Position numbers and translations under genes: made by a program
Shown here: positions 62,860 to 63,130 of the stretch, piece by piece
Numbering within the stretch: the first letter of the stretch is position 1
How the letters are laid out: every line of letters begins with the position of its first letter
Notes under the pieces: model-generated
What the model was told of the DNA's origin: nothing
What the model saw: the letters and a program-made list of their open reading frames with translations, nothing else
Databases searched by the model: none
Assembly (NCBI RefSeq): GCF_013167455.1
Contig: NZ_CP038328.1
Length of the DNA stretch: 64,000 nucleotides
Source: Escherichia coli O157:H7
GTDB lineage: Bacteria; Pseudomonadota; Gammaproteobacteria; Enterobacterales; Enterobacteriaceae
Direction: 5' to 3' (one strand)

Positions 62860-63130
62860 CTGCGCTAGCGCAGGCCAGAAGAGGCGCGTTGCCCAAGTAA
62901 CGGTGTTGGAGGAGCCAGTCCTGTGATAACACCTGAGGGGGTGCATCGCCGAGGTGATTGAACGGCTGGCCACGTTCATCATCGGCTACAGGGGCTGAAT
63001 CCCCTGGGTTGTCACCAGAAGCGTTCGCAGTCGGGCGTTTCGCAAGTGGTGGAGCACTTCTGGGTGAAAATAGTAGCGAAGTATCGCTCTGCGCCCACCC
63101 GTCTTCCGCTCTTCCCTTGTGCCAAGGCTG
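62860..63130 (+). ncRNA. lysine riboswitch (LYS element) in the lysC leader
   Basis: Long structured leader gaggcgcgttgcccaagtaacggtgttggaggagccagtcctgtgataacacctgagggggtgcatcgccgaggtgattgaacggctgg… immediately upstream of lysC. Confidence 0.8.

Follow-up and report, generated by a model that had tools for sequence, protein, structure and literature searches.

The leader of lysC in Escherichia coli O157:H7 carries a lysine riboswitch. The element lies near the end of a 64,000-nt window on contig NZ_CP038328.1, the window being the whole stretch of DNA that was analysed. It is almost certainly the known E. coli lysC lysine riboswitch, present intact, and acts as a cis-acting regulator in the 306-nt leader of the aspartokinase III gene. 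When all 4227 Rfam families were searched with cmscan, on 55000-64000 first and then on the entire window, the Lysine riboswitch family (RF00168) matched on the + strand with a score of 99.5 bits (E = 4.3e-26; the gathering score is 30), far above chance. The match covers model positions 1-182 of 182 and is not truncated. NCBI PGAP places a riboswitch feature on exactly the same bases, window 62871-63067, in identical E. coli genomes. The lysC start codon (63159) follows 92 nt 3' of the aptamer on the same strand. A sequence-only reading had already named the LYS element, or lysine riboswitch, of the lysC leader, and had singled out a covariance-model search as the analysis in which a missing hit would speak against it. 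The strongly positive, full-length RF00168 match bears that assignment out.

The intergenic region in which the riboswitch lies measures 524 nt and separates two divergent genes, pgi (- strand, 60985-62634) and lysC (+ strand, from 63159). The lysC ORF begins MSEIVVSKFGGTS and its product matches the Pfam AA_kinase family (E = 3.5e-47). In a 100% identical O157:H7 record, lysC is annotated with a length of 1350 nt. The numbering of Ghosh et al. 2024 (PMC10946432) implies transcription from 62853. With +1 at this base, the AUG occupies positions 307-309, and G349, U354-357, and A364 fall on G, UUUU, and A, respectively; every named base matches.

Upstream of this start, the -35 hexamer TTGACA (62818-62823) and an AT-rich -10 region, TTATTT/TATTTA (62841-62847), probably form the lysC promoter, which was placed by eye and with the published numbering of the transcription start. 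TTGACA and a TATTTC-like -10 recur at an equal distance in other Enterobacterales. Owing to its non-canonical -10, the lysC promoter was missed by a simple sigma-70 consensus scan. The literature on ArgP control of lysC yielded indirect mentions only. On the - strand, a sigma-70-like site at 62676-62705 (ATCACA, an 18-nt spacer, and TACAAT), 40-70 nt upstream of the pgi start, is plausibly the pgi promoter. The functional unit of the riboswitch spans 62853-63161, to which the promoter (62818-62847) is added. The interval originally proposed for the element, 62860-63130, takes in the entire aptamer and the greater part of the expression platform; it leaves out the first 7 nt of the leader, the strand at 63147-63153, and the start codon. 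The features of the leader are collected in Table 1.

Table 1. Coordinates of the lysC leader, its regulatory elements, and the start of the gene in the window
Feature	Position	Strand	Basis or remark
lysC promoter	62818..62847	+	probable; read from the sequence, geometry fits a start at 62853
Transcription start, +1 (G)	62853	+	implied by the numbering of Ghosh et al. 2024 (PMC10946432)
5' terminal hairpin, CCUGCG-CUAG-CGCAGG	62859..62874	+	predicted in all folds
Lysine riboswitch aptamer, RF00168	62871..63067	+	cmscan
P1	62876-81/63057-62	+	model alignment
P2	62886-94/62941-49	+	model alignment
P2b	62902-08/62927-33	+	model alignment
L2-L3 loop-loop contact	GCCA 62914-62917 with UGGC 62967-62970	+	covariation
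P3	62953-64/62973-83	+	model alignment
P4	62984-94/63001-10	+	model alignment
P5	63012-17/63047-52	+	model alignment; insertion of ~18 nt extends the P5 hairpin
Anti-sequester (anti-P1, ON-state) helix, 5' strand	63041..63055	+	folds pair this strand with 63108-63121
Small platform hairpin, UAGUAGCGA-AGUA-UCGCUCUG	63071..63091	+	predicted in all folds
C-rich, G-poor tract, putative rut	63089..63118	+	C 0.53, G 0.13
RNase E Site1, UCUUCC	63102..63107	+	published positions 250-253 (delta-Site1) = 63102-63105
Switching strand, GCUCUUCCCUUGUG	63108..63121	+	predicted to pair upstream (ON) or, via 63115-63121, with the Shine-Dalgarno region (OFF)
Second UCUUCC, putative RNase E Site2	63110..63115	+	direct repeat, 8 nt downstream of Site1
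Sequester helix, 3' strand, CACGAGG	63147..63153	+	contains Shine-Dalgarno GAGG, 63150-63153
lysC start codon, AUG	63159..63161	+	PGAP CDS start in an identical record and numbering check
lysC CDS (lysine-sensitive aspartokinase III)	63159..64000	+	truncated at the window end, 280 codons present
In vitro Rho termination points, early ORF	G349 = 63201, U354-357 = 63206-63209, A364 = 63216	+	PMC10946432, bases match

By megablast, 5425 of 5426 complete E. coli genomes contain the segment 62641-63200. Of these 5425 matching records, 5419 share at least 99% identity with it, and many, among them O157:H7 strain PV15-279, are 100% identical. In K-12 strain MC4100, a single mismatch is found in 560 nt, at window position 62814, where the base is G here and A in MC4100. 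MC4100 is reportedly the strain background of the Lafontaine laboratory. The mismatch lies four bases 5' of the lysC -35 hexamer (about -39) and outside the RNA; it could affect regulation at the promoter level. Since the only mismatch is upstream of the -35 and untranscribed, the transcribed leader is identical to that of MC4100. This identity with K-12, together with the base-perfect fit of the published numbering, means that the RNA here is the molecule that has been studied experimentally. The element had been described at the outset as known and expected, and it is indeed the same as the K-12 lysC riboswitch (Caron et al. 2012; Bastet et al. 2017; Ghosh et al. 2024). The leaders are equal base for base, the landmark positions map exactly, and pgi and lysC flank both. 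L-lysine binding and repression of the downstream gene have been demonstrated for the identical K-12 leader (PMC10946432).

The conservation of the RNA was followed in related leaders. Three core motifs of the aptamer, searched as an exact pattern in a genome collection of 100,044 species, gave at least 120 loci, and a lysC homologue lies directly downstream in 58 of 120 among the matches listed. From these matches, the leader of the window was aligned with 39 distinct Enterobacterales leaders (alignment A2, 40 leaders), including those of Serratia, Pantoea, Erwinia, Rahnella, Budvicia, and Tatumella. For about 60 loci among the matches listed (L003-L122), the 1.5 kb downstream contain no LysC homologue. 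They belong mostly to Clostridia/Oscillospiraceae, and some to Streptomyces, Rhodobacteraceae, and Gemmatimonadetes. Presumably, these loci are lysine riboswitches that serve other genes or, in the high-GC genomes, matches by chance.

The aptamer comprises 47 canonical pairs in six helical segments. The junction motifs J1/2 (AGAGG), J2/3 (GCCGA(GG)), J4/5 (UGUCA), and J5/1 (GGAG..CU) match the RF00168 consensus, each marked with an asterisk for posterior probability; the J5/1 motif reads GGAGCACU here. The junction nucleotides of the lysine pocket are invariant in the 40 Enterobacterales leaders. The P2-L4 contact, a k-turn in P2, and a loop E motif are features of the class (PMC6614840), and the alignment to RF00168 is good across these regions. 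Over the 47 pairs, 94% of the cells in A2 are paired, and double changes occur in 20 pairs. None of 500 shuffles reached the observed value, and slid registers gave 40-49%. P1 and P5 are invariant in the 40 leaders and are hence uninformative alone for covariation. The L2-L3 loop-loop contact, a defining tertiary contact of the class (PMC6614840), is paired in 93.1% of cells in the same leaders, with 22 double-change cells (G-C/A-U/U-A and G-C/A-U/C-G). Again, 0 of 500 shuffles reached the observed value, and slid registers gave 10-48%. The analysis itself thus demonstrates class membership, identity with the studied sequence, pairing potential, and the conservation of that potential.

Relative to the RF00168 model, the E. 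coli element has an extra hairpin of ~18 nt in P5. Insertions of roughly 20-130 nt are seen in the P5 loop of several Enterobacterales (A2 columns 186-325), with E. coli carrying a short extension only. The carriers are Cedecea (L049), Pantoea sp. IMH (L035), Erwinia sp. ErVv1 (L113), Budvicia (L055), and the loci L070, L076, L045, and L114.

A degenerate, non-functional leader, with the regulation of lysC left to its promoter and to the feedback-inhibited enzyme alone, is barely conceivable. Lysine regulation of lysC at the promoter was described by Liao and Hseu 1998, to judge from its citation in PMC10946432, and the one base change at 62814 is located beside the -35 box. However, the transcribed leader shares 100% of its bases with the functional one of K-12, 5419 of 5425 matching records show at least 99% conservation, and the core motifs and helices are all intact. 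Lysine also represses a reporter that combines a heterologous promoter with the identical leader (PMC10946432). A decayed copy is therefore excluded by the identity with a functional sequence. The earlier description of the element as intact holds: the transcribed leader equals that of MC4100, and it retains 47 of 47 canonical aptamer pairs together with the junction motifs and the platform elements.

In the expression platform of this intact riboswitch, one strand is predicted to take part in two alternative helices. Pairing of 63041-63055 with 63108-63121, the anti-sequester helix, is seen in both the unconstrained and the P1-blocked minimum free energy (MFE) folds. Its 5' strand overlaps the 3' strand of P5 and J5/1 and ends just 5' of the 3' strand of P1. 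In the sequester helix, CACGAGG would pair with CCUUGUG (63115-63121) over 7 bp. The duplex energies are -17.0 kcal/mol for the anti-sequester and -9.8 kcal/mol for the sequester helix. The stronger anti-sequester duplex fits a default-ON switch that would be trapped OFF when lysine locks P1/P5. The unconstrained MFE fold of the leader adopts the anti-sequester helix at -127.1 kcal/mol. Enforcing the aptamer helices gives -108.1 kcal/mol, a cost of about 19 kcal/mol in a nearest-neighbour folding model that counts neither lysine binding nor tertiary contacts. With the aptamer enforced, the best ViennaRNA fold pairs the Shine-Dalgarno region with codons 5-7 and not with CCUUGUG, the sequester fold being 2.4 kcal/mol worse.

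The strands of the platform are strongly conserved. The switching strand (63108-63121) is near-invariant in Enterobacterales. CUGACACGAGG, which consists of the Shine-Dalgarno and 7 upstream bases (63142-63153, A2 columns 508-519), is almost invariant before lysC across the order. This conservation goes well beyond the need of a Shine-Dalgarno alone. For the anti-sequester helix, 93.7% of the cells in the 40 leaders are paired, and the changes are one-sided only (G-C, G-U, A-U); for the three ON-state helices jointly, slid registers gave 48-62%. The sequester helix is paired in 97.5% of cells, and shuffles were indistinguishable from the observed value. Since its two strands hardly vary, the covariation test of this helix is uninformative. 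No double compensatory changes were found in either platform helix in A2. Complementarity is thus conserved in the platform helices, and covariation proves neither of them. At the place equivalent to the small platform hairpin, relatives carry a CGUAG...CUACG hairpin, for which 54.7% of cells are paired and 5 of 8 pairs show double changes in a poorly aligned part of the alignment.

One E. coli locus has a disrupted platform. In strain WB61 (L123, NZ_CP020025.1, locus 3012-4970), an ISEcp1 transposase element and a fragment of a DUF4942 gene lie between the riboswitch and lysC. The homology ends inside the Shine-Dalgarno, at query position 511 (window 63151). Judging from this insertion and from the break within the Shine-Dalgarno, lysC of WB61 has probably been uncoupled from its own riboswitch.

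The proposed mechanism can be outlined as follows. When lysine is scarce, GCUCUUCCCUUGUG (63108-63121) would pair back onto 63041-63055, on the 3' side of the aptamer. This anti-sequester pairing would block P1, free the Shine-Dalgarno GAGG, and bury the C-rich tract, so that lysC would be translated. When lysine occupies the five-helix junction, P1 and P5 would close and the strand 63108-63121 would be released. The released CCUUGUG would then pair with CACGAGG, which would hide the Shine-Dalgarno and repress translation. In this lysine-bound state, the C-rich UCUUCC tract would be single-stranded and open to RNase E cleavage and Rho loading, and Rho, with NusG, would terminate at G309 (63161) and at 349-364 (63201-63216). 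Published work describes a lysine-bound fold that hides the Shine-Dalgarno and exposes RNase E sites and a rut site (PMC10946432, PMC5499598), and G309 (G63161) as a termination and pause site for Rho/NusG (PMC10946432). For the present leader, the response to lysine, the cleavage by RNase E, and the termination by Rho are taken over from this literature on the identical sequence.

The lysC riboswitch of B. subtilis, the L box, works by intrinsic attenuation, in which a terminator/anti-terminator hairpin is followed by a U run (PMC6614840). It shares with the E. coli element the aptamer class, that is, the RF00168 five-helix junction with its L2-L3 and P2-L4 contacts, and it also has an aspartokinase gene downstream. 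Attenuation of this type is nevertheless highly improbable here. In 63068-63158, from the aptamer to lysC, a terminator scan of the + strand found no intrinsic terminator in the form of a G+C-rich hairpin with a T run 3' of it. The platform contains instead a predicted helix that would sequester the Shine-Dalgarno and a C-rich tract with RNase E and Rho sites, and control by translation, RNase E, and Rho has been published for the identical sequence (PMC10946432). As the terminator is absent from the + strand of the leader, an attenuator of the Bacillus type is excluded.

Features expected of RNase E and Rho control can be located in the leader. The base composition of the C-rich tract is conserved, with medians of C 0.44 and G 0.12 in the 40 Enterobacterales leaders, compared with C 0.26 and G 0.31 in the whole leaders. 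A rut site around position 240, which falls within this tract, and Rho dependence have been reported (PMC10946432). Among the 40 leaders sampled, the UCUUCC of Site1 is found in E. coli only. The second UCUUCC lies within the conserved block GCUCUUCCCUUGUGCC, which is widespread across Enterobacterales. We infer that this second copy is the published Site2, as we infer the exact base pairs of both platform helices. Caron et al. 2012 is said to be the primary paper on RNase E and the lysC riboswitch. When the aptamer and the sequester helix are both enforced, 63100-63114 is single-stranded, a segment that includes Site1 and most of the second UCUUCC. In the ON fold, the C-rich tract is largely paired, with Site1 placed in an internal loop of the ON-state MFE. 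The rut tract and the UCUUCC sites are thus predicted to be single-stranded only in the ligand-bound fold; cleavage and Rho loading at these sites are taken from the literature.

A small protein or an antisense product encoded here, instead of or besides the RNA switch, is most improbable: the mechanical list holds two overlapping ORFs, of 57 aa (62958-63131, +) and 181 aa (62834-63379, -), but neither has a Pfam match or is annotated in RefSeq records, and the substitutions among Enterobacterales fit paired RNA columns, with indels of non-triplet length. Both ORFs were rejected because they lack a Pfam match and an annotation. For the same reasons, the 181-aa ORF, which is antisense to the leader and the start of lysC, is most likely spurious.

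The riboswitch may have one further part. The leader's first 22 nt are predicted to fold into a hairpin that directly adjoins P1 and is not covered by the RF00168 model. RNAalifold gave it 8 pairs in the 40 Enterobacterales leaders, 7 of which show compensatory double changes. It is a tentative idea, about which we are rather doubtful, that this hairpin has a function in the lysC switch of enterobacteria and is under selection. One possible role would be to shield the 5' end against RNase E or RppH, with decay proceeding via the internal sites that lysine exposes. Another possibility is that the hairpin stacks on P1 and tunes the switching threshold.

Other riboswitches resemble the lysC element in part. 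The aptamer of Thermotoga maritima (3DIL) belongs to the same fold class, and AGAGG, GCCGAGG, UGUCA, and GGAG..CU match the model consensus here, although 3DIL is a crystal structure of an aptamer-only construct from a distant organism and the likeness is drawn from sequence and model alignment alone. In E. coli, thiC and ribB, which respond to TPP and FMN, respectively, also have translational riboswitches whose ligand-bound fold bares a C-rich rut, and Rho terminates near the start codon as in lysC (PMC5499598, PMC10946432). They differ in ligand and aptamer family, and lysC additionally bares RNase E sites in the same tract.

The Rfam scan reported other RNA families elsewhere in the window. 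A match to STnc430 (67.5 bits; 60669-60818, +) and two naRNA4/REP-derived matches (81.3 and 68.4 bits; 60884-60955 and 51213-51283, both -) lie in the pgi-yjbE spacer and further upstream. At 16641-17918 and 25501-25689, AgvB (anti-GcvB sRNA), STnc100, three tRNA genes, C4 antisense RNA, and isrK were matched. Since such matches are typical of a prophage or pathogenicity island, part of the window seems to have been acquired horizontally, at a distance of some 35-45 kb from lysC.

The element is already known, and no new riboswitch is described here. The annotation is correct for one of the best-characterised riboswitches of E. coli, and it matters little as a discovery. For the organism, it means that the lysine control of aspartokinase III has been kept intact in this strain, whose leader is 100% identical to O157:H7 records and to numerous further E. 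coli genomes. AEC and other antibacterial lysine analogues target the lysine riboswitch (PMC6254735), which is also of practical relevance in the engineering of lysine production.
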